A DNA stretch of 64,000 nucleotides from Dehalococcoidia bacterium (GTDB lineage: Bacteria; Chloroflexota; Dehalococcoidia; Lucifugimonadales; JAGWBF01), in contig OZ244824.1 in NCBI GenBank assembly GCA_965220375.1, forward strand, positions 2,125,133-2,189,132, read 5' to 3'. A program made the position numbers and the translations under genes. Below the pieces are notes generated by a model, which saw only the letters and a program-made list of their open reading frames with translations, had not been told where the DNA came from and did no database searches. Shown in pieces: positions 1,850 through 63,731 of this stretch. Positions within the stretch are counted from its first letter, which is position 1, and each line of letters begins with the position of its first letter.

Positions 1850-2983
1850 ATGGACTTAGGGCTTACCGAAACTCAGCAGATGCTGAAAAGCAGCGCCCGG
1901 GAATTCCTGGAGAGCGAATGTCCCCCTGCCCTGGTCCGCCAGATGGAAGAGGATGAGAGAGGCCATCCCGAGCAGGTGTGGAGGCAGATGTCAGCCCTGG
2001 GATGGTGCGGTCTTGCCTTCCCCGAGGAGCACGGCGGCACCGGCGGGGACTTCATGGACCTGGCCGTTCTCCTGGAGGAGATGGGAAGGGCGCTGTTGCC
2101 AGGGCCTTTCTTCTCCACCGTTGTGCTGGGAGGCCTGACGATCATGGATGGTGGTACCGAAGGTCAGAAGCGCGAGTACATCCCGCCGATTTGCGAGGGC
2201 CGAACTACCGTGGCCTTGGCCTTGGTCGAGGACAGCGCCACTTATGAGCCTTGGGGAGTAAAGGCCAGCGCCCGCCGGTCCGGGGATGGATACATCATCG
2301 ATGGCGCGAAGCTGTTCGTGCCCGATGGTCAGATTGCCGACGTGTTTCTCGTCGCTGCCCGAACATCGGAAAGCTCCGACCCCGCCGACGGCATAAGCTG
2401 CTTCCTCGTACCGTCGAGCCTTGCAGGCATCGCCATCAGGCCCATGCGGACGCTGGCGGGCGACAAGCAGTGTGAGGTGGTGCTTGCTGGCGTGGAAGTG
2501 CCCGAAGCGGCGCTTCTGGGGCTGGAGGGCAAGGGTTGGCCTCTGTTGGAGCGCACCCTGAAGAGGGCGACGGCAGCGAAGTCCCTGGAGATGCTGGGGG
2601 GCGCCGAGGCTGTGCTGGATTTGACGGTCGGCTACGCCAAGCAGCGGGTGCAGTTCGGTCGTCCCGTGGGCAGCTTTCAGGCAGTACAGCACCACTGCGC
2701 GAACATGGCTACGGAAGTCGAATGCTGCCGTTACGTTGCCTACCAGGCAGCCTGGAAGCTTACCGAGGATGGTGCCGCGGACAGAGAAATTTCGATGGCC
2801 AAGGCTTGGACCAGCCGCTCCTACCAGCGGGTCTGTTCCCTGGCCCACCAGTGCCACGGCGCCATCGGCTTCACCTGGGACCACGACCTCCAGCTGTACA
2901 CACGCAGAGCGAAGGCCCAGGAGTCCCTCTACGGCGGTCCGGGGTACCATGAGGACCTGGTCGGCCAAGCATTGGGCATCTAA
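1850..2983 (+). CDS. acyl-CoA dehydrogenase family protein
   Basis: ACAD-like sequence ('FPEEHGGTG', 'GAKLFVPDG', 'RVQFGRPVGSFQAVQH'). The start is moved from 1760 to the ATG at 1850, which follows GAGGAG with about 6 nt spacing and avoids overlap with the upstream gene. Confidence 0.85.
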   Translation: MDLGLTETQQMLKSSAREFLESECPPALVRQMEEDERGHPEQVWRQMSALGWCGLAFPEEHGGTGGDFMDLAVLLEEMGRALLPGPFFSTVVLGGLTIMDGGTEGQKREYIPPICEGRTTVALALVEDSATYEPWGVKASARRSGDGYIIDGAKLFVPDGQIADVFLVAARTSESSDPADGISCFLVPSSLAGIAIRPMRTLAGDKQCEVVLAGVEVPEAALLGLEGKGWPLLERTLKRATAAKSLEMLGGAEAVLDLTVGYAKQRVQFGRPVGSFQAVQHHCANMATEVECCRYVAYQAAWKLTEDGAADREISMAKAWTSRSYQRVCSLAHQCHGAIGFTWDHDLQLYTRRAKAQESLYGGPGYHEDLVGQALGI

Positions 2984-4431: not shown

Positions 4432-5616
4432 ATGGCAATTTCATCCAAGATACGTGGGCTGGCGGGGGAGGGGAGCGCCATCCGCAAGATGTTCGAAGCG
4501 GGTATCGCCCTCAAGGCCCAACACGGCGAGGATAAGGTGTTCGATCTCTCCTTGGGGAACCCGGTTGCCGAGCCGCCGGACAGGTTTCGCCAGGTGCTAA
4601 GGGAGCTGGCGCGGGAACCCCGGCCCGGAATGCACCGTTACATGCCCAACGCGGGCTACAACGACACCCGAAGGGCTGTCGCCGAGGGACTCACGGCCGA
4701 AACCGGCATCGCCTTCTCCCTGGAAGATGTGGTCATGACCTGCGGGGCTGCGGCTGCCCTCAACGTCGTCCTGAAGACTATCATCGACCCTGGCGACGAG
4801 GTGCTCTTCTTCGCCCCTTACTTCGTCGAGTACCGCTACTATGCCGATAATCACAACGGCATCCCTGTGGTGGTCCCCACCGATGCAGACTTTCAGCCGG
4901 ACCTGGCGGCCCTGGAGTCCCTGGTATCGCCCAAGACAAGGGCGGTGCTGATAAACTCACCCAACAATCCTTCCGGGGCTGTGTACTCGGCAGAGCGGAT
5001 TTCCGCTCTCTGCGCCCTGCTGGAAGAGAAGAGCAGCCGTTTTGGCACCGAGATCTTCCTGGTCAGCGACGAGCCATACAGGCAGCTGCTCTACGATGGC
5101 CTCAGCTACCCCCACGTCTTTCCCTACTACGGCCCCACTATAACGGTCCACTCCCACGCCAAGGACCTGGCGCTGCCCGGCGAGAGGATCGGACACATCG
5201 CGGTCAATCCGGCTTACGAGAGCCGCCGCGAGCTGGTGGACGGGCTTGTCTTCTGCAACCGCATCCTGGGATTCGTCAACGCTCCCGCCCTCATGCAGCA
5301 TGCCGTGCGGGAGCTTCAGGGGATCTCCGTGGATGTAGCCGACTATCAGCGCAAGCGGGACTTCCTATATGGTGAGCTGGTGGGGATGGGTTACTCCTGC
5401 TTCAAACCCCAGGGAGCCTTCTACCTGTTCCCCCGGTCCCCCGTGGAAGATGAAGAGGCATTTGTAGAGGAGCTACAGTCCTGGAATGTGCTCGTTGTAC
5501 CGGGACGCACCTTCGGTTCCCCGGGATTCTTCCGCATCTCCTACTGCGTCGAGGACCGGGTGCTGGAAGGGTCGTTGGAAGGGTTTCGCCAGGCGGCCCT
5601 GAAGTTCGGCCTGTAG
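4432..5616 (+). CDS. pyridoxal-phosphate-dependent aminotransferase (class I/II)
   Basis: 394-aa ORF. 'LINSPNNPSG' and 'SHAKDLALPGERIG' (PLP-lysine context) are typical of Asp/Ala aminotransferases. Confidence 0.85.
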   Translation: MAISSKIRGLAGEGSAIRKMFEAGIALKAQHGEDKVFDLSLGNPVAEPPDRFRQVLRELAREPRPGMHRYMPNAGYNDTRRAVAEGLTAETGIAFSLEDVVMTCGAAAALNVVLKTIIDPGDEVLFFAPYFVEYRYYADNHNGIPVVVPTDADFQPDLAALESLVSPKTRAVLINSPNNPSGAVYSAERISALCALLEEKSSRFGTEIFLVSDEPYRQLLYDGLSYPHVFPYYGPTITVHSHAKDLALPGERIGHIAVNPAYESRRELVDGLVFCNRILGFVNAPALMQHAVRELQGISVDVADYQRKRDFLYGELVGMGYSCFKPQGAFYLFPRSPVEDEEAFVEELQSWNVLVVPGRTFGSPGFFRISYCVEDRVLEGSLEGFRQAALKFGL

Positions 5617-5643
5617 GCTGCCCGCCCTTGCTGTTCCCGGCCG

Positions 5644-6948
5644 CTAGACGGTCGCCGACCTGCGAGCGGGCTTTCGCATCAGTGCAAAGCAGACTGCCGC
5701 GGTCCCGATAAACACCAGGCACAGCATCAGGGGGAAGCTGTAGTCTCCCCCGGTATGGTCGGCCCACCAGCCGACGAACATCGGAGAACCCACCAGCACA
5801 CCGCTTTGGGAGAAGGTGATGATTCCCCTCAGGCTGGCGAACTTGCGACGCCCGTAATAGTCTCCCAAAGCTGCCCAGCCGATGATGCCCACGCTCTCCC
5901 CGATACCCGTGAACACCAGGTACAGCACTATGGCCCAGGGAGAGGTGTCCCACGATCCCATGAGAATCAGCAGACAAGCCAGGGAACCGACGACCGCGCA
6001 GAGGGTCATTATGGGTGGCTTGGGCCACCGGTCGGACGCCCAGCCGATGGCAACCCTGGCGACCACGTTGGTCGCCAGCATCAGGGCGATCAGATAGCCG
6101 GCGGTCTCCAGGCTGGCTCCCTTCCAGATGAGTATAGGCTGGAGATTGACCAAGATGCCCATGACGGCGAGCTGGCGCAGCACCATGCCGAGCAGCAGCA
6201 GCCAGTATGTGCTGGTCCGTAATGCCTCCGAGATGCTGAAGTCTCTCGGATCGATGGCGGGTCGGCTGCCGGAAGCCCCCTGCTCCCTCGCGGGTTGGGG
6301 GCCGGAGGCAGGGTCATCGCCGTCGGGAAGCAGTCCTATGCTTTCGGGAGAGGTCCTGATCACAAGGGTGAAGGGCAGCACCACCCCGAGGAATATCAAG
6401 CCTGACATGAATGAAGCCCACTCCCATCCCGCGCGGGCGATCAACAGGGTCAATATGGGAATGAGCACAACGCCCCCCAGGGCGGCTGATGAGGCGAGCA
6501 GGGACAATGCCAAGGCCCGATTGCGGATGAACCACATGTTCAGTCCCGCAAAGATGGCGTGCTGGAAGGAGACGCTGGCGCCCAGGGATATCATTCCAAG
6601 GTACACCAGGGCAAAGGAGATGAAGTCGTCCACCCTGGCAAACAACAGGTAGCCGATCCCCGCAATGATGATGCCCAGGACTGCCAGCAGCCGGTTCCCA
6701 AACTTGTCGATCAGGTATCCCGCCGCGGGACCTTCCAGGCCGCCTTCAGCCCGGGATATGGAGAAGACCAGCGAGGTCTGGAAGTTGGTCAGGCGCAGAG
6801 AGTCCCTCAGAGGAACGAAGAAGACCGAGAATCCCCTGAAGAAGATGCCGCTGGCAAAGAACATCATGAAGCATGATGCAGCGGCCACTTTCCAGCCGTA
6901 GTAGATGCCCTTTGTCCCTGACCCCGGTAACCAAGCTCGCAGATTCAA
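5644..6948 (-). CDS. MFS transporter
   Basis: 434-aa polytopic hydrophobic protein in two six-helix halves, joined by a hydrophilic central loop. Confidence 0.8.
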   Translation of the reverse strand: MNLRAWLPGSGTKGIYYGWKVAAASCFMMFFASGIFFRGFSVFFVPLRDSLRLTNFQTSLVFSISRAEGGLEGPAAGYLIDKFGNRLLAVLGIIIAGIGYLLFARVDDFISFALVYLGMISLGASVSFQHAIFAGLNMWFIRNRALALSLLASSAALGGVVLIPILTLLIARAGWEWASFMSGLIFLGVVLPFTLVIRTSPESIGLLPDGDDPASGPQPAREQGASGSRPAIDPRDFSISEALRTSTYWLLLLGMVLRQLAVMGILVNLQPILIWKGASLETAGYLIALMLATNVVARVAIGWASDRWPKPPIMTLCAVVGSLACLLILMGSWDTSPWAIVLYLVFTGIGESVGIIGWAALGDYYGRRKFASLRGIITFSQSGVLVGSPMFVGWWADHTGGDYSFPLMLCLVFIGTAAVCFALMRKPARRSATV

Positions 6949-9197: not shown

Positions 9198-9345
9198 GCT
9201 CAGGGTTCGGGACGGCTCCCGCGCGCTGGCGCCACTGGTCAGGAAGCCTGCAGCAACCTAGCTACGCCTGCGGACGGAAGGGCGCCAGATTCCCGTTTGC
9301 ACAGGAATGACGAATGGCGGGGGGACCATTGTGTAACCTTAGGTG

Positions 9346-9394
9346 ACGGCTGTCCGTTCGCCCTGAGGCAACTCGAAGGGGAACGGACAGCCGT
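9346..9394. repeat. hairpin intergenic repeat (GTCCGTTCGCCCTGAGG...TCGAAGGGGAACGGAC family), copy 1
   Basis: Near-perfect inverted repeat acggctgtccgttc / gaacggacagccgt around a 21-nt loop. Related copies lie at 9547..9590 (inverted) and 44004..44054. Confidence 0.8.
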
Positions 9395-9399
9395 AACTG

Positions 9400-9546
9400 C
9401 GCCTTGAATCCTGCCCTGCCCTTCCCGCGTTTGTGCCCCCCGGGGATCTGAGCCAAGGTCCCCAGTGGGAGAGGAGATGGGGTGGGGTGAGAGGGGTCTT
9501 ACTTGGTGAGCAGCATCTCAAGCACTTTGGGCAGCGCCTGCCTTGG
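9400..9546. repeat. diverged direct-repeat copy of 10335..10471, including a relic of the selenoprotein gene 3' end
   Basis: Alignable by eye to 10335..10471. The minus-strand reading of 9497..9541 gives '...RQALPKVLEMLLTK*', against '...RQALPKVLEILLTK*' at the live gene end. Confidence 0.7.
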
Positions 9547-9590
9547 CCCGCCCGTTCCCCTTCGAATGCCTCAGGGCGAACGGACGGGGG
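9547..9590. repeat. hairpin intergenic repeat, copy 2 (inverted orientation)
   Basis: cccgcccgttccccttcgaatgcctcagggcgaacggacggggg is the reverse-orientation version of the 9346 element. Confidence 0.75.
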
Positions 9591-15394: not shown

Positions 15395-15661
15395 AGCAAG
15401 TCAATAGTTCCGCGTCTGAAGGGGAGTAGTAGGGACCGAGAGCCCCCAGAGAGCCGGCGACAGGTGAAAGGCCGGCGGCTGCCAAATCCCGAACTCGCCC
15501 CGGAGCGGCCCTCCTGAAAGCGCCCGCCGTGTGCGTTCGCCGGGTAGGGAAGGGCGGTGGACACCGATAACGTCATCGAGGTGCTCGGGTGATGCAAATC
15601 ACCGGGAACGAGGGTGGTACCGCGGGAAAGTGACCCGTCCCTTAGGGATGGGTCTTTTTTT
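15395..15661 (+). ncRNA. T-box riboswitch leader, probable Leu (CUC) specifier
   Basis: Stem I elements are present: GAAGG..AGUAGUA, CAGAGAG and GGUGAAAGG. The specifier-loop candidate is 'GAA CUC G'. The canonical T-box motif AGGGUGGUACCGCG lies at 15611..15624 and overlaps a terminator. Downstream is ilvBNC-leuACD. Confidence 0.75.
15632..15661 (+). terminator. intrinsic terminator of the T-box leader
   Basis: The hairpin GACCCGUCCC-UUA-GGGAUGGGUC is followed by a run of 7 U. Confidence 0.8.
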
Positions 15662-34467: not shown

Positions 34468-34544
34468 GGGCCCGTAGCTCAGGTGGTTAGAGCGCGGTCC
34501 TGATAAGACCGAGGTCGATAGTTCGAGTCTATCCGGGCCCACCA
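34468..34544 (+). tRNA. tRNA-Ile (anticodon GAU)
   Basis: Manual cloverleaf: acceptor GGGCCCG/CGGGCCC, D arm GCTC..GAGC, anticodon stem CGGTC/GACCG with loop CTGATAA, T arm GATAG-TTCGAGT-CTATC, and an encoded CCA. Confidence 0.92.
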
Positions 34545-35184: not shown

Positions 35185-37017
35185 ATGAACAGATTCGGCA
35201 GCCTGTGCATTCTATTCTTAACAGCCCTTCTGATGTTGCTCACCGTGATGGCTTGCAGTGAGGAAGACTCTGCACCGTTAACCCCTGCGACTGCGCCATC
35301 CTCGGCGACGGCTTCACCTGAGGCCACAACGCCAAAGCCGACCGCCACGCCAAGTCTGATAACCATTGACTGCAATGATCCGCGTTTTACAAAGCAGATT
35401 CTGGAACTATCGGAGGACAATCAGAATCAGTTCTCGCCACGTATCCTGAAATTGTATTCAGATGCGGAGGAAATAGAACGGACGGAAAGCGTATTGCGTT
35501 GCAGAGGCACAGCGACCCTAAGCCGAGGCGGCGAATCGAACATTACCTACCACTATGAGATAGACCGTGATGGCGACGCATTCATCGGATACGAGATTGG
35601 AGACCCTATTGCGACACCCACACCTGCCACGAGTCCCTCACCAGGCTTCACCTTGGACAATCCCCTTTCGGCGGGTGAACCCCTGCAAGGCTCCGACGGT
35701 ACGGAGACACGTGTCTTAGGCGTAGTCGAAGATGCCCGACGGCAGGTAGCCGAGGAAAACCAGTTCAACGACCCGCCGCAAGAGGGGAAGCGCTTCTATA
35801 TGGTCTCAGTCGAGGTTTCATATCCTTCTGGCAGTAGTTCTATCGCAGTGAGCGACACAGATTTCAGTCTCATTGGTGAGAATCGCGTTGTCTACGACTC
35901 ATTCGATTACGACTGCGGCGTCATCCCCAACGAGCTTGATGGTGAAGTTTACGGTGGAGGCAGAATACAGGGCAACATCTGCTTCGAGATTCCCGATGAC
36001 GAGGGCGGCTTCATCCTAATACATGAACCCGGATATGGAGCAGATTCGCGCCGTTTCCTCAGACTCACCTATGGTGAAGCCAAGGAGCCGACACCGACCC
36101 CGGAAGCGACAGCCTCCCCTACGACAACACCTATGCCGACGGCCATCCCAACACCCGAATCCAAGCCCACAGAGCCTGCTACATCAGAACCCACTTCAGA
36201 ACCAGCACCCACTGAGGCTGCTGCATCAGAACCTACTTCCGAACCAGCGCCTACTCGGGATGCCCCAGTCGGCTTCGGTCCTGGGACCTACCAGGTCGGC
36301 GAGGACGTATCTCCCGGCACATATGCTGGCAGAGCGGGTACCGGAATTCTGGATTCGTGTACGTGGGAGCGGCTGAGCGGCGCATCAGGAGAGTTTTCTG
36401 ACATCATTGCAATCGAGATTGCCAACGGGCAGTTCTATGTGGAGGTTCTCGACACTGACAGGTACTTTAGAACCTCTTGCGTTGTAACGGTGCTTGATGA
36501 GTGGCCAGTGCCTGATGAGCCTTTGTCCATGATCGGTATCGGCACACACATGATTGGAAGAGACATATCTCCCGGCACATATGCTGGCAGAGCGGGTACC
36601 GGAATTCTGGATTCGTGTACGTGGGAGCGGCTGAGCGGCGTATCTGGAGAATTTTCTGAGCTTGTCGCAATCGAAATTGCCAACGGGCAGTTCTACGTAG
36701 AGGTTCTCGATACTGACAGGTACTTTAGAACCTCTTGCGTTGTAACGTCGCTGGATGAGTGGCCAATGCCTGATGAGCCCTCGTCCACAATCGATATCGG
36801 CACACACATAATTGGAAGGGACATTTTGCCTGGTACATATACGGGTAGAGCTGGTACCGGAGTTCTGGATTCGTGTACGTGGAAACGGCTGAGTGGTGTC
36901 TCTGGAGAGTTTTCTGAGCTTATCGCAATCGAGATTGCAAACGGGCAGTTCTATGTAGAGGTTCTCGACACTGATAGATACTTAAGAACTTCCTGTGTTC
37001 TTGAATTGGTTGAGTAG
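35185..37017 (+). CDS. secreted lipoprotein with a DUF4352-like domain, a Pro/Thr/Glu linker and three C-terminal 86-aa repeats
   Basis: Signal peptide with lipobox 'LLTVMAC'. A 'GKRFYMVSVEVSY...FSLIG' DUF4352-like region is followed by a PT-rich linker and 3x 'PGTYAGRAGTGILDSCTWERLSG..GEFS..IAIEIANGQFYVEVLDTDRYFRTSCV'. Confidence 0.75.
   Translation: MNRFGSLCILFLTALLMLLTVMACSEEDSAPLTPATAPSSATASPEATTPKPTATPSLITIDCNDPRFTKQILELSEDNQNQFSPRILKLYSDAEEIERTESVLRCRGTATLSRGGESNITYHYEIDRDGDAFIGYEIGDPIATPTPATSPSPGFTLDNPLSAGEPLQGSDGTETRVLGVVEDARRQVAEENQFNDPPQEGKRFYMVSVEVSYPSGSSSIAVSDTDFSLIGENRVVYDSFDYDCGVIPNELDGEVYGGGRIQGNICFEIPDDEGGFILIHEPGYGADSRRFLRLTYGEAKEPTPTPEATASPTTTPMPTAIPTPESKPTEPATSEPTSEPAPTEAAASEPTSEPAPTRDAPVGFGPGTYQVGEDVSPGTYAGRAGTGILDSCTWERLSGASGEFSDIIAIEIANGQFYVEVLDTDRYFRTSCVVTVLDEWPVPDEPLSMIGIGTHMIGRDISPGTYAGRAGTGILDSCTWERLSGVSGEFSELVAIEIANGQFYVEVLDTDRYFRTSCVVTSLDEWPMPDEPSSTIDIGTHIIGRDILPGTYTGRAGTGVLDSCTWKRLSGVSGEFSELIAIEIANGQFYVEVLDTDRYLRTSCVLELVE
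36277..37014 (+). repeat. three tandem 258-bp coding repeats inside the lipoprotein gene
   Basis: The period is exactly 258 bp (for example ggcacacaca at 36541 and 36799). Repeats 1 and 2 share an identical run of more than 60 nt (36310..36377 and 36568..36635). Confidence 0.85.
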
Positions 37018-44003: not shown

Positions 44004-44054
44004 CTGGGTTGTCCGTTCGCCCTGAGGGAAATCGAAGGGTGAACGGACAGCGTG
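44004..44054. repeat. hairpin intergenic repeat, copy 3
   Basis: gttgtccgttcgccctgagggaaatcgaagggtgaacggacagc belongs to the same family as 9346..9394. The flanking 'gtaacct' and 'aatcct' are also shared. Confidence 0.75.
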
Positions 44055-58279: not shown

Positions 58280-58789
58280 ATGGTCAACCAGTCGCCGGCC
58301 AAGCTGACCCCCCATGCTGTCCTGGGCGAGATGCTGAAGAACGAGATCACCCATGTGGTGTGTCTCCCCGACAGCGAGACCAACTGGCTGTACATGCTCA
58401 TGGAGAAGGAGCCCAGCCTGGACCTGGTCCGCGTTGCCAGGGAAGGCCAGGCCATCTCCACAGCCTCGGGCATATCCGTGGGCGGCAAGAAGCCCGTTGT
58501 GCTCATCCAGAACACCGGCCTCATGGAGAGTGGAGACTCTATTCGGGGATGGGCTATGGGCCTCAACAGGCCCCTGGTGCTCATCGTGGGATACCGAGGC
58601 TGGACCCGAAAGGGCGTAACCCCCGACACCGCCGCTGTCTATACAGAGCGGTTTCTGAACGCATTCAACATCGACTACTACCTGGTCGAGTCCGACGAGG
58701 ATGTTTCCCGGATCTCCCTAGCATTCAGCGAAGCAAAGAAGAAGAACCAACCCGTGGCTGTGCTGATAGGCGTGGAGTACGAAAGTTAG
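58280..58789 (+). CDS. ThDP-dependent decarboxylase, alpha (N-terminal PYR-domain) subunit; sulfopyruvate/phosphonopyruvate decarboxylase-like
   Basis: 169 aa ('VVCLPDSETNWLY', 'VLIQNTGLMESGDS'), with a separate beta subunit downstream. Confidence 0.7.
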   Translation: MVNQSPAKLTPHAVLGEMLKNEITHVVCLPDSETNWLYMLMEKEPSLDLVRVAREGQAISTASGISVGGKKPVVLIQNTGLMESGDSIRGWAMGLNRPLVLIVGYRGWTRKGVTPDTAAVYTERFLNAFNIDYYLVESDEDVSRISLAFSEAKKKNQPVAVLIGVEYES

Positions 58790-58819
58790 GCCCTCCTCCT
58801 CCTTTGAGAGACTTTTGCA

Positions 58820-58900
58820 CAATCGTTATTGCGGCGGAAGCCGCAATCCAGTCCCGGGCATTTCTGGAAACCGGCGAAAGCCGGTATGACGTTTATGACG
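58820..58900. repeat. two-hairpin intergenic element of the same architecture as the 59701 array units
   Basis: cgttATTGCGGC-ggaa-GCCGCAATcc ... aaaCCGGC-gaaa-GCCGGtatgacg is hairpin 1, a spacer, then hairpin 2 ending in tATGACG. The array units have the same design with different stems. Confidence 0.6.
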
Positions 58901-59067
58901 TTAAAGAGGGGCCGGTATGATGGCTATGCGATGGTCTTCTCGAGGGAGTGGGTTGGGGTGTGGGTGATATTCAATGGATTCGGGCACAAGTCGAAATGAC
59001 GAATGATTGCGCGAAGGTCTCCTAAGGGAGCACGCCAGGGTAAAGGACTGAATAAACGGAGGCTGAG

Positions 59068-59658
59068 ATGATCGATACCTTAGATATGCTCAGGGTGTTT
59101 GCCCAGTACCGGGGCAACTCCATCGTGATCCCCGGCAGAGGCGGGCGCCACTGGGTAACCCTGAGCGACCAGCCCAGCCGGGACCTGCCGTTGAGGGACC
59201 CGGCCATGGGGGGACATGCTTCTTTTGCTTTCGGCATGGCCCTGGCACTGCCCCAGGAGAGGGTCGTGCTGTTCGATTCCGAGGGCGATATCATCATGAA
59301 CATGGGCGCCCTCACCACCATTGCAGAGAAGGCGCCGGAGAACTTCTACCACTTTCTTCTGGACAACGAGTGCTACGCCACCACGGGCGGGCAGGCCATA
59401 CCCAACGCCACCCGCACAGCCTACGATGTGATCGCAAAGGGAGCGGGCTACCGGGCTGCCTACGCCTACGACGATTTGGAAGAGCTGTCCAACGACATGG
59501 AGCGGATACTATCGGAGCCAGGGCCGGTGCTGGTGGCGATGAAGGTGAAGCCGGAGATAGAGACCCTCGCCATCAGTGCCAGGCCTGCGTGGGTCACCCG
59601 CACCCGCGATCAGATAATCGCCGACGTCCAAGGTGAGGTAGGCGTGTCGGCCCGGTAG
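59068..59658 (+). CDS. ThDP-dependent decarboxylase, beta (PP-domain) subunit
   Basis: 196 aa with a 'GDIIMNMGAL...LLDNECY' ThDP-binding motif. Confidence 0.7.
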   Translation: MIDTLDMLRVFAQYRGNSIVIPGRGGRHWVTLSDQPSRDLPLRDPAMGGHASFAFGMALALPQERVVLFDSEGDIIMNMGALTTIAEKAPENFYHFLLDNECYATTGGQAIPNATRTAYDVIAKGAGYRAAYAYDDLEELSNDMERILSEPGPVLVAMKVKPEIETLAISARPAWVTRTRDQIIADVQGEVGVSAR

Positions 59659-59700
59659 GGCATAAGGTGCTCACCGACACTCTATCCTGGCCTAGGGCCG

Positions 59701-60245
59701 CGACTGCTCCACCGTCACTCCCCCGACTGCTCCACCGTCACTCCCGTGAAGACGGGAGTCTATGTGGATGAAGGGCCGCCCCCCAGGGCCTGTAGCAAGA
59801 GGGAATAGATACCCGCGTTCGCGAGCATGACGGAATAGCTATCGTCACTGCCGCGACTGCTCCACCGTCACTCCCGTGAAAACGGGAGTCTACGTGTGTG
59901 AAGGGCCGCGCGCTAGGGCCTGTAGCAAGAAGGGAATAGATACCCGCGTTCGCGAGTATGACGGAATAGCTATCGTCACTCCCCCGACTGCTCCACCGTC
60001 ACTCCCGTGAAAACGGGAGTCTACGTGTGTGAAGGGCCGCGCGCTAGGGCCTGTAGCAAGAAGGGAATAGATACCCGCGTTCGCGAGTATGACGGAATAG
60101 CTATCGTCACTGCCGCGACTGCTCCACCGTCACTCCCGTGAAGACGGGAGTCTATGTGGATGAAGGGCCGCCCCCCAGGGCCTGTAGCAAGAGGGAATAG
60201 ATACCCGCGTTCGCGAGCATGACGGAATAGCTATCGTCACTGCCG
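59701..60245. repeat. tandem array of four 130/131-bp multi-hairpin units (plus a 23-bp partial leader copy) in variant order A-B-B-A; non-coding
   Basis: Unit starts (cgactgctccaccgtcact) lie at 59724, 59854, 59985 and 60116, with a partial copy at 59701. Units 1 and 4 read identically, as do units 2 and 3. No ORF of 60 aa or more is present. Confidence 0.9.
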
Positions 60246-60289
60246 AGCACCCCCGCGCGTGCTGCAGGGGCAACTCTTGTGCCCGCCCC

Positions 60290-61489
60290 CTATGCGCGGA
60301 TCTCGTTCTTCATTTGTCTGATCCTTCCGGCCAGGTTCCTGACTTGGGCCAGCACATCATCGAAGGAAACATCCAGGTCGAGGGCGGCTACTTCGAGGCG
60401 CTTGCCTGAATGCCGGACGTGGTATATAGCAGGTTCGGCTTCACCCTTGGCGTAGATGAGCAGTCCTCCGGGCAAGTTGGCAGCTGTGGTGTAGGCTAGG
60501 AGCTGGTAGAGATCGGCGTTGGGCATCCGCACATCGTAAAGGTTCTTGTACTTGGCATCCCCTACGAACACGCACTTCTTCCCCTGTTGCCATGCCAGGT
60601 CGGGCTTGAGGTGGATCCTGCCACCTTTGTCCAGGCTGTCCATGATCCGTTCGCCGAAGTCCCCCTCGAAAGGATGGAGGGCTTCCCGCAGGGCCTCGGT
60701 AACGAACTCCTGGAAGACCACGTTCATGTCTATGAGGAACCCCGACGCCCTCACCTCGCCCCTCTGGGCCTCAAAGGAGGTGTGCCGCAGGATGAGACGC
60801 GCCAGTCCTATGACGTTGCCGTAATGCTCGTTGAGCCGATGTAGCGGTACGGCAGGCACATTTCCGGGCGCATACTCGGCCAGCCCAACGTTGTCGAGGA
60901 CTGCCCCAATCCACCCAAGGCCCACGCGGGCATTCCTGTTGCGCAAGCGCATCCGGCTGAGCCTATGGGCCGCTGCCTTAACCAGGCGGTTCTCTGGAAT
61001 GTCTTCGGTGTACTCGTCATAACGGACCTCGACAGGCAGGGGAACGCCGAACCTGCGCCTTATCTGTTCGGCGAACATGATGCGCCCCCGCACGGTGAGC
61101 TGCGCCTCTTCTTCGGTGACGTAACCCCGGTACACTCCCCGTCCGAAGGCTTGGCGTGCCGCTTTGCCTAACGCCAGCGCCAATATGTCTGGCAGGGCGT
61201 GCGCCTCAGGGTAGTCGAACAGCCCTTCCTGGGGTCTGAATGCGCCCATGGCGTAGCAGACCATGGACAAGAGCTGGGGTATGCCAATCTTGGGCTGGAT
61301 CAGCACCGACAGGTTGCCAAGCTCGACCGCGCCGACGGTGGAGCCGGGCCTCAGAATGTACGAGTCTTGCTCACCGGGTACGGGTGTGGCTTCTAGGCCG
61401 CCGATTGTCGCGAGGAGGGCATCGCGCTCCGGCGCAGCAAGCTGGAACGGGTCGCTCCGTTCATACTCCCGCAGGCTGATCTCACGCAT
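60290..61489 (-). CDS. mcrC: McrC-like nuclease subunit of a type IV (McrBC-type) restriction system
   Basis: 399 aa with a C-terminal PD-(D/E)xK-like 'LKPDLAWQQGKKCVFVGDAKYK'. Immediately downstream of the McrB-like gene. Confidence 0.8.
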   Translation of the reverse strand: MREISLREYERSDPFQLAAPERDALLATIGGLEATPVPGEQDSYILRPGSTVGAVELGNLSVLIQPKIGIPQLLSMVCYAMGAFRPQEGLFDYPEAHALPDILALALGKAARQAFGRGVYRGYVTEEEAQLTVRGRIMFAEQIRRRFGVPLPVEVRYDEYTEDIPENRLVKAAAHRLSRMRLRNRNARVGLGWIGAVLDNVGLAEYAPGNVPAVPLHRLNEHYGNVIGLARLILRHTSFEAQRGEVRASGFLIDMNVVFQEFVTEALREALHPFEGDFGERIMDSLDKGGRIHLKPDLAWQQGKKCVFVGDAKYKNLYDVRMPNADLYQLLAYTTAANLPGGLLIYAKGEAEPAIYHVRHSGKRLEVAALDLDVSFDDVLAQVRNLAGRIRQMKNEIRA

Positions 61490-61491
61490 AG

Positions 61492-63087
61492 CTAACCTGT
61501 GCTGCCGGAAGGCCCGTCATGGGGGGCACCTTGCTCGGTGGCTCCATTGGCCTCCCCAAGCACAGAGGTGTTGGCCGCCCGTAATGCCTCTAGGTTGAAC
61601 TCCTTTAGGCGCTCCGGCTGGCCGTGTAGAAGCTCCGAGATGTAGGGAAGTATGTTGTGCTTCCAGATGCGCTTGACCGACTCCTCAGTGAGGTTGTCCT
61701 TCATGAAGTAGCTGGGGCCGATGGCGGCGTCCCGGTCCTTTTGCAGGAGCGCATTCACCTTATCCACGACATCGGCGACCCATTCCAAGCCCGAAGCATT
61801 CTCCTTCAAGAATCGGTTAAGTACGCTCTTCACTGGCTCTTCGTCGGGGTGGAACTCGACGAAGTGAAACCGCCTTCTCAGCGCGAGGTCCACCAGTGCA
61901 ATGGAGCGGTCGGCGGTGTTCATGGTGCCGATGATGTACAGATTCTGGGGCAGAGAGAAGGGCTCGTTCGAGTACTGGAGGGACATCTCCCTGTCCCGGT
62001 ATTCCAGCAGGAAGTAGAGCTCGCCAAACACCTTGGCCAGATTCCCCCGATTTATCTCGTCGATGACCAGGAAATGTTTCTTGTCCGACTCTTTCTTCGC
62101 ATTGTCAGCAGCCCGTTTCAGGGGGCCTTCCCGCAACTCGAAGCCGGCCTGTCCATTAACGAGTGAGGGGCGAAATCCCTGCACGAAGTCCTCGTAGGCG
62201 TAGGATGGATGGAACTGGACCAGGGTTACCCGTTGCGTCGAGCCAGCCAAGCATTCCGCCAGTTCCTGAGCAACGTAGGTCTTGCCCGTCCCAGGCGGCC
62301 CCTGGAATATGACCTGCTTCTTATCCTCCAGCAGCTCGACGATCTCCTCCAGGAACTCCTCGGTGAGGTAAGTGCGCTGGCCTAAGTCTGCCAGGTCGGG
62401 CGCAAACACCTGTTCCGGACCCTTCTGCTTATCCTCTTCATCGCCGCCGTTCTTGACTACTTCAATATCGGATGGGAGCATCCATAGCACCGATTGAGCG
62501 TCGAGGCGGTGCCTAAGTTTGACTCCTCTCTGTTCTGCTTCCTGGATGAACCGGTCGAGGAAGCCGAGGGCGTGCTGATACAAGGTCGCCTCGTCCATAT
62601 AGCCATCGGGTCTGCTGTATCCGGTGAGCTCATACGCTTTATTAAATACCCTGATTCTAAATGGCGGATACAGGTAAACGTCGGACGCCATCAGCAGCAC
62701 AGAAATAACAGTGGTACGAATCCCAAGTGCACCTCTCACGGCTGTGCGTGGGAAGTTGTGGCAAAACTCGCGGATTCGCTGATCTACGGATGTTCGGTCT
62801 TGCCTCCACAGACTCTGAAGTGCCTCCAAAGCTTCACTGGAATGATTAGCGCACCAATCGCTGATTTCAGCTATTGTTCGAAAGTTCATGGGGTGCCCAG
62901 GCCTAGCTCTCATCGCGTGCTTCAAATGGCTGGGCCATCCGCTTGCACCGTTTATCACACTCTCCTGGGCTGAGGCGAGTTCTTGGCCCATCTTCACCTT
63001 GTAGCCTATTTCTTCCTCTTCTAACCGGCCGTTAGCTATAGACTCGTTTGCTCGCCTAACTAACGCATCCCAAGTTGAATTATTCAT
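61492..63087 (-). CDS. mcrB: McrB-like AAA+ GTPase subunit
   Basis: 'VIFQGPPGTGKTY', 'FHPSYAYEDFVQGFRP', 'LVIDEINRGNLAKVFGELYFLLEYR' and 'IIGTMNTADRS' are present. The start is set at the ATG at 63087, 1 nt after the upstream stop; the ORF extends to 63135. Confidence 0.85.
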   Translation of the reverse strand: MNNSTWDALVRRANESIANGRLEEEEIGYKVKMGQELASAQESVINGASGWPSHLKHAMRARPGHPMNFRTIAEISDWCANHSSEALEALQSLWRQDRTSVDQRIREFCHNFPRTAVRGALGIRTTVISVLLMASDVYLYPPFRIRVFNKAYELTGYSRPDGYMDEATLYQHALGFLDRFIQEAEQRGVKLRHRLDAQSVLWMLPSDIEVVKNGGDEEDKQKGPEQVFAPDLADLGQRTYLTEEFLEEIVELLEDKKQVIFQGPPGTGKTYVAQELAECLAGSTQRVTLVQFHPSYAYEDFVQGFRPSLVNGQAGFELREGPLKRAADNAKKESDKKHFLVIDEINRGNLAKVFGELYFLLEYRDREMSLQYSNEPFSLPQNLYIIGTMNTADRSIALVDLALRRRFHFVEFHPDEEPVKSVLNRFLKENASGLEWVADVVDKVNALLQKDRDAAIGPSYFMKDNLTEESVKRIWKHNILPYISELLHGQPERLKEFNLEALRAANTSVLGEANGATEQGAPHDGPSGSTG

Positions 63088-63088
63088 C

Positions 63089-63589
63089 CTAAAGCTCGTT
63101 CCCTTCCGTGATCTCCCGGAATCTAGGCTCCTCAAGAGCGCACAATGCGTGGCTAGAGAATCTGGGAGAGGTTATGACTTTCTCCAAATCCTTCCAGCGA
63201 ACGTGTAGGAAGTAGGCATGGTCTTCTGGAAATGGACCCGCCTGCTCCTGTGCCATCTCCCGGCTATAGAAAGGATGCCCTGTAACCTCTCCCATTCCAA
63301 TCACGCTGCCTATTCCACGGCGGGCCAAGATCTTGTCTCTGGCTTTGACCTTGTACCAAAAGCACTTCAACTGACGTAGGCCATGGGCCCCCCATGGCTT
63401 TTTCTCCCCTCGTTCAATTCGCCGGGGTGCCTCCAGCCAATACATCTCCTCCAATTGCTGTGGTGAATCAAACTGCCCAACGTTCCATCCTATGGATATG
63501 ACACCTTTGGACTTGTCATAGCTCCATACTTGGTCGAAGTGGCCGCGGGCGTCGTTGGCTATAGGGGCCATTATCCAGTAATTAGGCAT
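63089..63589 (-). CDS. PUA-like (EVE/ASCH-type) domain protein, putative modified-base reader encoded separately from McrB
   Basis: 166 aa. The start 'MPNYWIMAPI...' and 'FWYKVKARDKILARRG.GSVIGMGEVTG' resemble the EVE-like beta-barrel layout. It is the first gene of the mcrBC operon. The assignment is tentative. Confidence 0.4.
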   Translation of the reverse strand: MPNYWIMAPIANDARGHFDQVWSYDKSKGVISIGWNVGQFDSPQQLEEMYWLEAPRRIERGEKKPWGAHGLRQLKCFWYKVKARDKILARRGIGSVIGMGEVTGHPFYSREMAQEQAGPFPEDHAYFLHVRWKDLEKVITSPRFSSHALCALEEPRFREITEGNEL

Positions 63590-63731
63590 ATCGTCCTCTT
63601 CAGAGCTTCATGAAGGGTGTGACTCTGGTCCCTCGCGCATATCCTTTTCATCCCTCACATATAGGAAGACTGGAAGAGGGGCGCTACAAATGATTGAGCG
63701 ACGGTAACTTGAAGGCCCTTCCCGCCACCCC

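Follow-up and report, generated by a model that had tools for sequence, protein, structure and literature searches.

CGTC-tagged repetitive extragenic palindromes (REPs) were defined as a superfamily by Di Nocera, De Gregorio and Rocco (2013, BMC Genomics 14:522; PMC3733652). Family CGTC-1, which corresponds to dRS3, has an 8-bp stem, a 4-nt loop and a 3-nt tail, occurs predominantly as head-head (HH) dimers with the tags outside and spacers of 20-100 bp, and forms clusters in which dimers are reiterated in tandem with flanking DNA. The CGTC REPs of this survey had no associated transposase at that time. Chenal et al. (2025, Nat Commun 16:2388; PMC11893778) described the Neisseria Transformation Sequence (NTS), CGTCATTCCCGCGMAVGCGGGAATCYRG, which encompasses dRS3, and defined a degenerate 'Ssn-related motif' (SRM). 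SsnA, a GIY-YIG protein of 94 aa, binds the motif only as single-stranded DNA (ssDNA) and cuts a few nucleotides upstream of it, while double-stranded DNA and RNA are unaffected; binding and cleavage are reported to depend on the three bases on the 5' side of the palindrome and on the C that directly follows it. The arrangement NTS-ssnA-NTS resembles an insertion sequence, and the same authors drew a parallel to REPs and their RAYT (REP-associated tyrosine transposase) proteins. Here, a tandem hairpin array in a 64,000-nt stretch of DNA from a Dehalococcoidia bacterium (assembly GCA_965220375.1, contig OZ244824.1, positions 2,125,133 to 2,189,132, forward strand; in the following, the window) is compared with these systems. 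With a probability of roughly 0.8, the array arose by local amplification in tandem of a single HH dimer, made up of CGTC-tagged REP hairpins of the NTS/SRM class.

The array fills the gap between the 3' ends of two convergent genes, encoding the beta subunit of a thiamine pyrophosphate (TPP)-dependent decarboxylase and McrC (Table 1). A sequence-only reading of the window had described a partial copy of 23 bp followed by four units of 130/131 bp in the order A-B-B-A, and Tandem Repeats Finder (TRF) and unit comparison confirm this layout. TRF returns a single array at 59713-60241 (period 131, 4.1 copies, 94% matches) and a separate 23-bp duplication at 59701-59745 (x2.0). Units 1 and 4 are indeed identical over 130 nt, while the reported identity of units 2 and 3 holds over 131 nt except for two bases within the last 5 nt. 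About nine differences plus one indel had been estimated between A and B; the count is eight positions and a 1-nt indel; with the junction included, 10 positions differ. The junction pentamers run cccc/gccg/cccc/gccg, and this alternation is independent of the A/B type, as the same reading had recognised. The 24-mer core of the forward hairpin, CACTCCCGTGAARACGGGAGTCTA, occurs four times in the window, where 0.00 occurrences are expected, and is confined to the array. A CRISPR array is ruled out, as whole units including their 'spacers' recur and the scanned flanking ORFs gave no match to a Cas family, and a coding repeat is rejected on the basis of ORFs that reach only 44-47 aa inside the array; both exclusions agree with the initial assessment.

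Each unit consists of an HH dimer of 97 nt, in which two 28-nt hairpins with outward-facing tags are separated by a 41/42-nt spacer, and a 33-nt linker. The forward hairpin is composed of an unpaired CGTC tag, an 8-bp stem, a 4-nt loop and a tail starting with C. Inspection of sequence and folds verifies both the 8-bp stem ACTCCCGT/ACGGGAGT and the outer CCGTCA...TGACGG pairing that the sequence-only reading had proposed, but its other structural assignments hold only in part. Of the two loops classified as GNRA-type, GAAA qualifies and GAAG does not. Of three hairpins assigned to each unit, the first is well formed and the GGCC stem is weak (4-5 bp), while the third is not an independent element but a degenerate inverted copy of the motif class of the first. 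The stems of the inverted hairpins contain one or two G.T or mismatched positions each. The 41/42-nt spacer is the most variable part of the unit, both between variants and between strains. In addition, one or two copies of the 5' arm alone (CGTCACTsCC) lie ahead of each full hairpin at a spacing of 22-23 nt, in the window at 59713-59735 and in the linkers. Among 143 foreign copies in the matches listed, such an iteration of half-sites was found only in a Dehalococcoidia MAG (metagenome-assembled genome; locus L003, ~2675-2720, minus strand), and it occurs in 0 of 126 control windows. It could stem from slipped-strand duplication, alternative pairing or extra binding half-sites.

Table 1. Features of the array and its surroundings. 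Coordinates are positions in the window; the unit phase starts at 59724, 59854, 59985 and 60116.
Feature	Position	Strand	Remarks
Solitary NTS-like hairpin CGTCATTCCTGTGCAAACGGGAATCTGG	9285-9312	-	intergenic
TPP decarboxylase, alpha subunit	58280-58789		
Separate, diverged gene-less doublet	58824-58891	.	between the two decarboxylase subunit genes; 12-nt spacer
Doublet hairpin CGTTATTGCGGCGGAAGCCGCAATCCAG	58824-58851	+	
Doublet hairpin CGTCATACCGGCTTTCGCCGGTTTCCAG	58864-58891	-	
TPP-dependent decarboxylase, beta subunit	59068-59658	+	ends 42 nt before array; Pfam PF02775
Leading partial copy	59701-59723	+	12-mer CGACTGCTCCAC plus half-site CGTCACTCCCC (5' arm of hairpin only); TRF, sequence
Unit 1, variant A, 130 nt	59724-59853	+	same as unit 4
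Forward 'type-1' SRM / CGTC-tagged hairpin CGTCACTCCCGTGAAGACGGGAGTCTAT	59736-59763	+	SRM pattern match; perfect 8-bp stem, 4-nt loop
Spacer between the two hairpins of a doublet, 41/42 nt	59764-59804	.	weak GGCC...GGCC stem
Inverted degenerate SRM hairpin CGTCATGCTCGCGAACGCGGGTATCTAT, head outward	59805-59832	-	SRM match on minus strand
Linker between successive doublets, 33 nt	59833-59865	+	GAATAGCTAT, half-site CGTCACTsCCs, CGACTGCTCCAC; recurs at each junction
Unit 2, variant B, 131 nt	59854-59984	+	same as unit 3 save 2 bases in terminal pentamer
Unit 3, variant B, 131 nt	59985-60115	+	unit comparison
Unit 4, variant A, 130 nt	60116-60245	+	ends in half-site CGTCACTGCCG
Further forward hairpins	59866-59893, 59997-60024, 60128-60155	+	SRM pattern match
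Further inverted hairpins	59936-59963, 60067-60094, 60197-60224	-	SRM pattern match
McrC	60290-61489	-	ends 44 nt after array; Pfam PF10117
McrB	61492-63135	-	longest window ORF, 547 aa

The assignment to the NTS/SRM class is based on the SRM search pattern HGTCWYN(0-2)YYVSBRHN(0-5)WNVSBRGN(0-2)RNCYNB, which is matched by all four forward and all four inverted hairpins of the array. The window contains nine matches, compared to a mean of 0.76 and a maximum of four in 50 dinucleotide shuffles. The forward hairpin differs from the Neisseria NTS by two compensatory base-pair swaps. In 17 distinct copies, selected in part because they form hairpins, pairing holds in 98.5% of cells and six of the eight pairs vary on both sides, a signal that is lost once the partners are slid against each other. 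G2, T3, C4 and C25 are among the invariant columns and coincide with the positions reported to be critical for SsnA. The hairpins also show the characteristics of CGTC-1, i.e., an unpaired CGTC/TGTC tag, an 8-bp stem, a 4-nt loop and a short unpaired tail; their arrangement as HH dimers with a 41/42-nt spacer lies within the 20-100 bp of that family. For the complementary A and T residues that CGTC-1 has at stem positions 1 and 2 the picture is mixed, with A,T in the inverted hairpins and A,C paired with G,T in the forward hairpin. CGTC-type sites are present at three places in the window: the array, the doublet at 58824-58891 and the solitary hairpin at 9285-9312.

The forward hairpin is widespread. 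Exact copies of CGTCACTCCCGTGAARACGGGAGTC are found in MAGs from seven or more phyla and in >120 metagenome contigs, and its exact core was located at 24 MAG loci and, among the matches listed, at >120 metagenome loci. The MAGs are labelled as Dehalococcoidia, Chloroflexota, LCP-89, Sulfuricurvum/Campylobacteraceae, Peribacteria, Gracilibacteria, Gamma- and Alphaproteobacteria, Spirochaetia, Desulfobacteraceae and Bacteroidetes. The usual downstream partner is a second hairpin, GGATTCCCGC-NNNN-GCGGGAATGACG, the reverse complement of the same motif class; such a tail-to-tail inverted partner, mostly a canonical NTS, accompanies 68 of the 147 listed foreign copies. The spacing of the partners in this set is bimodal, with 62 pairs at 5-100 nt (median 20) and five at 301-305 nt. 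The close-spaced dimers contain no gene between the hairpins, while an Ssn gene lies inside the 301-305-nt pairs. By crude ORF calling, 97 of 107 listed foreign copies are intergenic. The spacers (5-100 nt) are unrelated in sequence between loci, and across phyla only the 28-nt hairpins are conserved. Scattered single copies with no link to defence genes had been named as the pattern expected of a generic repeat. This is essentially what is observed for the hairpin module, while the complete 130-nt unit was found at this locus only. A BLAST search with the whole unit against plasmids and phages returned only chance-level matches of 23-33 nt, and the 24-mer gave 0 matches in viral contigs.

Several of the foreign loci show features of their own. 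A Kordiimonas MAG (locus L011, 1039-1346) packs five SRM hairpins of alternating orientation into 300 nt; they represent four different stem variants, and two type-1 copies among them lie 166 nt from each other. This is a further small cluster of heterotypic doublets outside Neisseria. The Spirochaetia MAG CBDHHO01 contains five dispersed copies (L010, L015, L016, L017 and L023), four of which share ~50 nt of downstream sequence (TTTGGCAAATGCTCTA...), suggesting that in this lineage the hairpin may be the core of a longer element resembling a miniature inverted-repeat transposable element (MITE). Large plasmids of Shigella and E. coli (43 plasmids, e.g., NC_007385.1, 69071-69093) contain a 22/23-nt match to the forward core in unannotated DNA, which may be due to chance (E about 4) or reflect a degenerate CGTC-type REP.

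A connection to the nuclease emerges from the metagenome loci. A profile built from Ssn sequences detects homologues in 12 of the 120 loci among the matches listed, and in seven of these the gene follows immediately 3' of the hairpin. In loci L034, L046, L050, L082 and L108, the forward type-1 hairpin is followed, after 9 nt, by an ssn ORF of ~105 aa and by an inverted canonical NTS, which overlaps the ssn stop codon; the tags face outward. The cassette in L088 has a degenerate partner hairpin, and that in L032 ends at the contig end. The encoded proteins match the Pfam family GIY-YIG (PF01541), form three clades that are 58-73% identical to each other and share 53% identity with a unique 94-aa ORF of N. 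gonorrhoeae set among seven NTS copies, the presumptive ssnA orthologue. Because the two ends of the unit in the window match those of the cassette in kind and orientation, with 41 nt separating them, the unit would correspond to a gene-less form of this cassette. The common gene-less doublet is bounded by the two dissimilar ends that also bound the ssn cassette, in support of the published suggestion that NTS-ssn-NTS behaves like an insertion sequence with miniature derivatives. Such doublets and their tandem arrays are apparently undescribed in the main text of Chenal et al. (2025), since this text does not contain 'MITE', 'tandem' or 'Chloroflex' and uses 'array' only once, in another sense.

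Comparison of closely related strains shows that the array changes rapidly. The independent contig L027, from a strain with 98.5% identity, contains four units in the form A'-B-B-A'', in which the spacer loop of unit 1 differs from the window and unit 4 carries a B-type base. L028, a circular contig of 2.64 Mb (37x) from a strain with 99.3% identity, contains just two units, A'-B. Both strains have retained the minus-strand hairpin at 58864-58891. An assembly artefact is rejected, because units are present in both of these independent strain contigs, in four and two copies, respectively; in addition, two short-read contigs break within the last unit, as expected of a repeat. Two versus four copies and mosaic units among near-identical strains show that the array gains and loses units and exchanges sequence among them over a very short evolutionary scale. 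The term 'recombination substrate', one of several possibilities raised in the sequence-only reading, is well suited to this polymorphism. The A-B-B-A order carries no hint of a function, because the period-2 junctions and the forms A'-B and A'-B-B-A'' make unequal exchange and gene conversion sufficient to produce it.

These observations can be combined into a scheme. The two hairpins would be the ends of a small cassette that elsewhere encloses ssn, the gene for a cd10448-type single-domain GIY-YIG ssDNA endonuclease of ~100 aa. Judged by its anatomy, the doublet would have arisen by loss of ssn and would be a gene-less derivative, comparable to a REPIN (REP doublet forming a hairpin) or a MITE in relation to its transposase, and together with adjacent DNA it would then have been reiterated through unequal recombination or slippage. 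Continuing gain and loss of copies and gene conversion account for two versus four copies and for the mosaic A/B units. By extension from the published Ssn/NTS system, the hairpins would extrude when the DNA becomes single-stranded during replication, transformation, conjugation or repair. A cognate Ssn, if any, could then bind the hairpin and cleave a few nucleotides to the 5' side of its CGTC tag, and such cutting could fragment ssDNA or locally both stimulate and limit recombination. The element is most plausibly regarded as repeat DNA of a selfish or neutral kind, lodged in a convergent intergenic gap, and neither as an RNA gene nor as a part of McrBC.

A number of points weigh against this reading, in addition to the preselection of the covariation set mentioned above. 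All but one of the seven full cassettes are located at a single orthologous site in related organisms, and the independent observations of the cassette are therefore few. With hmmsearch --max, an Ssn homologue was not found in the 64-kb window or in the L027 and L028 loci, and regex searches of the window and the first 24 loci yielded no GIY-YIG ORF. A doublet-specific pattern (hairpin plus CCCGCGTTCGCG within 25-55 nt) had 0 matches in the metagenome collection. The iteration of half-sites is not explained by the published model, and the inverted hairpins, with their imperfect stems, may have lost site function. Finally, it is by inference that the doublet is considered mobile and that the array is credited with effects on recombination or transcription.

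An extended version of this scheme assumes that the heterotypic doublet of a type-1 hairpin and an inverted NTS is a true non-autonomous mobile element, which is mobilised by a horizontally spreading Ssn cassette via ssDNA intermediates. The array would then result from self-targeted insertion or Ssn-initiated slipped repair beside an existing copy, and not from ordinary unequal crossing-over. This is possible but considered unlikely, at perhaps one chance in four. If true, it would explain the letter-perfect 24-mers in the candidate phyla radiation (CPR), Campylobacterota, Spirochaetota and Chloroflexota, and the regular array with its half-sites would record repeated events next to an existing copy.

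A different proposal is a role at the transcript level, as classically suggested for REPs, in which the array would act as a bidirectional terminator, an insulator or an mRNA-stabilising element between the decarboxylase gene and mcrC. The location in a convergent gap, at distances of 42 nt and 44 nt from the flanking stop codons, and the GC-rich hairpins on both strands would be compatible with this role, and CGTC REPs were found mainly between unidirectional and convergent ORFs, with RNA-level roles suggested (Di Nocera et al. 2013; PMC3733652). However, a stem followed by a T-tract is found at 0 sites in 58800-61000 on either strand, and the 107 listed foreign copies show no preference for convergent gaps (14 convergent, 18 divergent and 38 co-directional by crude ORF calling), so that the strong intrinsic terminator envisaged in the sequence-only reading is not substantiated. 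The sister strain L028 manages with two units, and any such effect would be a side effect of the hairpins that leaves the sequence identity across phyla unexplained. This role is therefore regarded as improbable.

Still somewhat less probable is a structured multi-copy non-coding RNA, in which the 130-nt units would be three-hairpin domains that act in trans or are processed to monomers. The stems are preserved by compensatory changes, some of the predicted folds contain the outer CCGTCA/TGACGG closure, and read-through from either convergent gene could cover the array. Rfam 15, however, contains no relevant match, neither at E<=10 around the array nor at gathering score across the window, and a promoter-like site was not found near the array. 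The minimum free energy z-scores for folding as RNA are only -0.7 to -1.9, and those of units and sub-segments, folded as RNA and DNA on both strands, range from -0.7 to -2.1. Conservation across phyla is confined to the 28-nt hairpins, with unrelated spacers of 5-100 nt, the motif is present in both orientations relative to neighbouring genes, and the characterised partner protein binds ssDNA but not RNA of the same sequence. The RNA suggested earlier has thus found no support in Rfam, in the folds or in the properties of the partner protein. A type III toxin-antitoxin RNA array, which like ToxI would lie directly upstream of a toxin endoribonuclease gene and be transcribed together with it, is rejected in view of the position between the 3' ends of convergent genes.

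The proposal that the array is tied to the adjacent McrBC operon, as a decoy, a regulator or the boundary of a defence islet, is scarcely credible and largely refuted by the missing co-occurrence: the array does adjoin the 3' end of mcrC, McrBC appears to be inserted between the genes for phosphoenolpyruvate (PEP) mutase and the split decarboxylase, and the McrB N-terminus differs among strains, but tblastn detects a McrC homologue in 0 of 144 foreign hairpin loci among the matches listed and just two of them contain weak AAA+ matches to McrB (~25% identity), the other McrBC boundary lacks an SRM copy, and the second doublet lies 0.9 kb away between metabolic genes and the solitary copy 50 kb away.

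The McrBC region has features of interest in its own right. The N-terminal region of McrB varies among near-identical strains, with 802 aa in L027 (region compared, 5426-6591), 547 aa in the window and 531 aa, as called, in L028. Nucleotide homology between L027 and the window stops at ~62400, and the shared part is 87% identical; this difference suggests that a DNA-recognition domain may have been swapped. The mcrBC genes and a 166-aa ORF are located between the PEP mutase gene, which lies immediately beyond the end of the window, and the split TPP decarboxylase (58280-63600 in the window), and the region looks like a defence islet inserted in a phosphonate-type biosynthesis cluster. The GC content drops to 0.52-0.57 across the 5' part of the McrB gene.

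Other parts of the window contain further repeats and RNA features. A second, unrelated palindromic repeat family, TGTCCGTTCGCCCTGAGG...CGAAGGGnGAACGGACA, is present in intergenic DNA at 9343-9397, ~9546-9588 and 44005-44051; it also occurs in locus L005 (3843-3887 and 6434-6486) and is shared at 88-94% identity with the Dehalococcoidia chromosome OY763929.1. Repeat families in common with Dehalococcoidia MAGs by themselves point to a probable Chloroflexota host. One of its copies adjoins the solitary NTS-like hairpin, forming a small REP-type mosaic. Tandem repeats at 36166-36255 (42 bp, x2.1) and 36304-36989 (258 bp, x2.7, 88% matches) are probably repeated domains in coding sequence. A T-box leader at 15406-15645 (+) scores 96.4 bits, just over the gathering score of 93, and a tRNA-Ile(GAT) gene is located at 34468-34544 (+).

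For annotation, the reading as a REP dimer array removes a candidate for a 'novel RNA or defence accessory', and hairpin arrays are worth testing first against the CGTC/SRM REP class. It extends CGTC/SRM REPs and, by implication, Ssn-type ssDNA nucleases to Chloroflexota-like MAGs and CPR genomes. Doublets of this kind can amplify into regular, fast-changing tandem arrays at which short-read assemblies break and which are possible strain markers.

Among the described systems, the array shares with the CGTC-1 REPs (PMC3733652) the CGTC tag, the 8-bp stem, the 4-nt loop, the 3-nt tail, the HH dimers, the tandem clusters of dimers and the occurrence of heterodimers. It differs from them by C:G instead of T:A at stem position 2 and by the tail CTA instead of CCA in the forward hairpin; moreover, Chloroflexota are not among the phyla listed for CGTC repeats in that survey, and a regular tandem of four with one half-site per linker is not described there. 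In common with the NTS/SRM-SsnA system (PMC11893778), the hairpins fit the SRM pattern and conserve the positions that SsnA needs, and the exact variant of the window directly flanks Ssn-family genes in metagenomes. In contrast to this system, no ssn gene was found within the 64 kb of the window, and the stem is ACTCCCGT instead of the ATTCCCGC of NTS.

REPINs with their RAYTs and clusters of bacterial interspersed mosaic elements (BIMEs), which are built from GTAG REPs (Bertels & Rainey 2011, PMC3116915), likewise are non-autonomous doublets of inverted hairpins that are related to the ends on either side of a single-copy nuclease or transposase gene and cluster in intergenic DNA. Their tag is GTAG and not CGTC, and they depend on a Y1 (HUH) transposase, whereas the enzyme located beside window-type hairpins elsewhere is a GIY-YIG nuclease of the Ssn type, which is not known to transpose. 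The intergenic mosaic elements of Neisseria (NIMEs), in which dRS3 repeats flank RS elements (Bentley et al. 2007, PMC1797815), also combine hairpin repeats of 20-28 nt with spacers of ~50-150 bp; they occupy fixed loci at which repeat number and array length vary by strain, and they have been proposed as recombination substrates. NIMEs, however, mix many different RS spacers, while the array in the window reiterates one unit almost identically, and the strict dRS3 consensus ATTCCC-N8-GGGAAT is replaced here by the stems ACTCCC...GGGAGT and ATGCTC/ATACTC...GGGTAT. The array is NIME-like in its operation without strictly belonging to this group; it is probably a cluster of CGTC-tagged, Ssn-related REP dimers that is functionally comparable to the NIME arrays of Neisseria and the BIMEs of enterobacteria.

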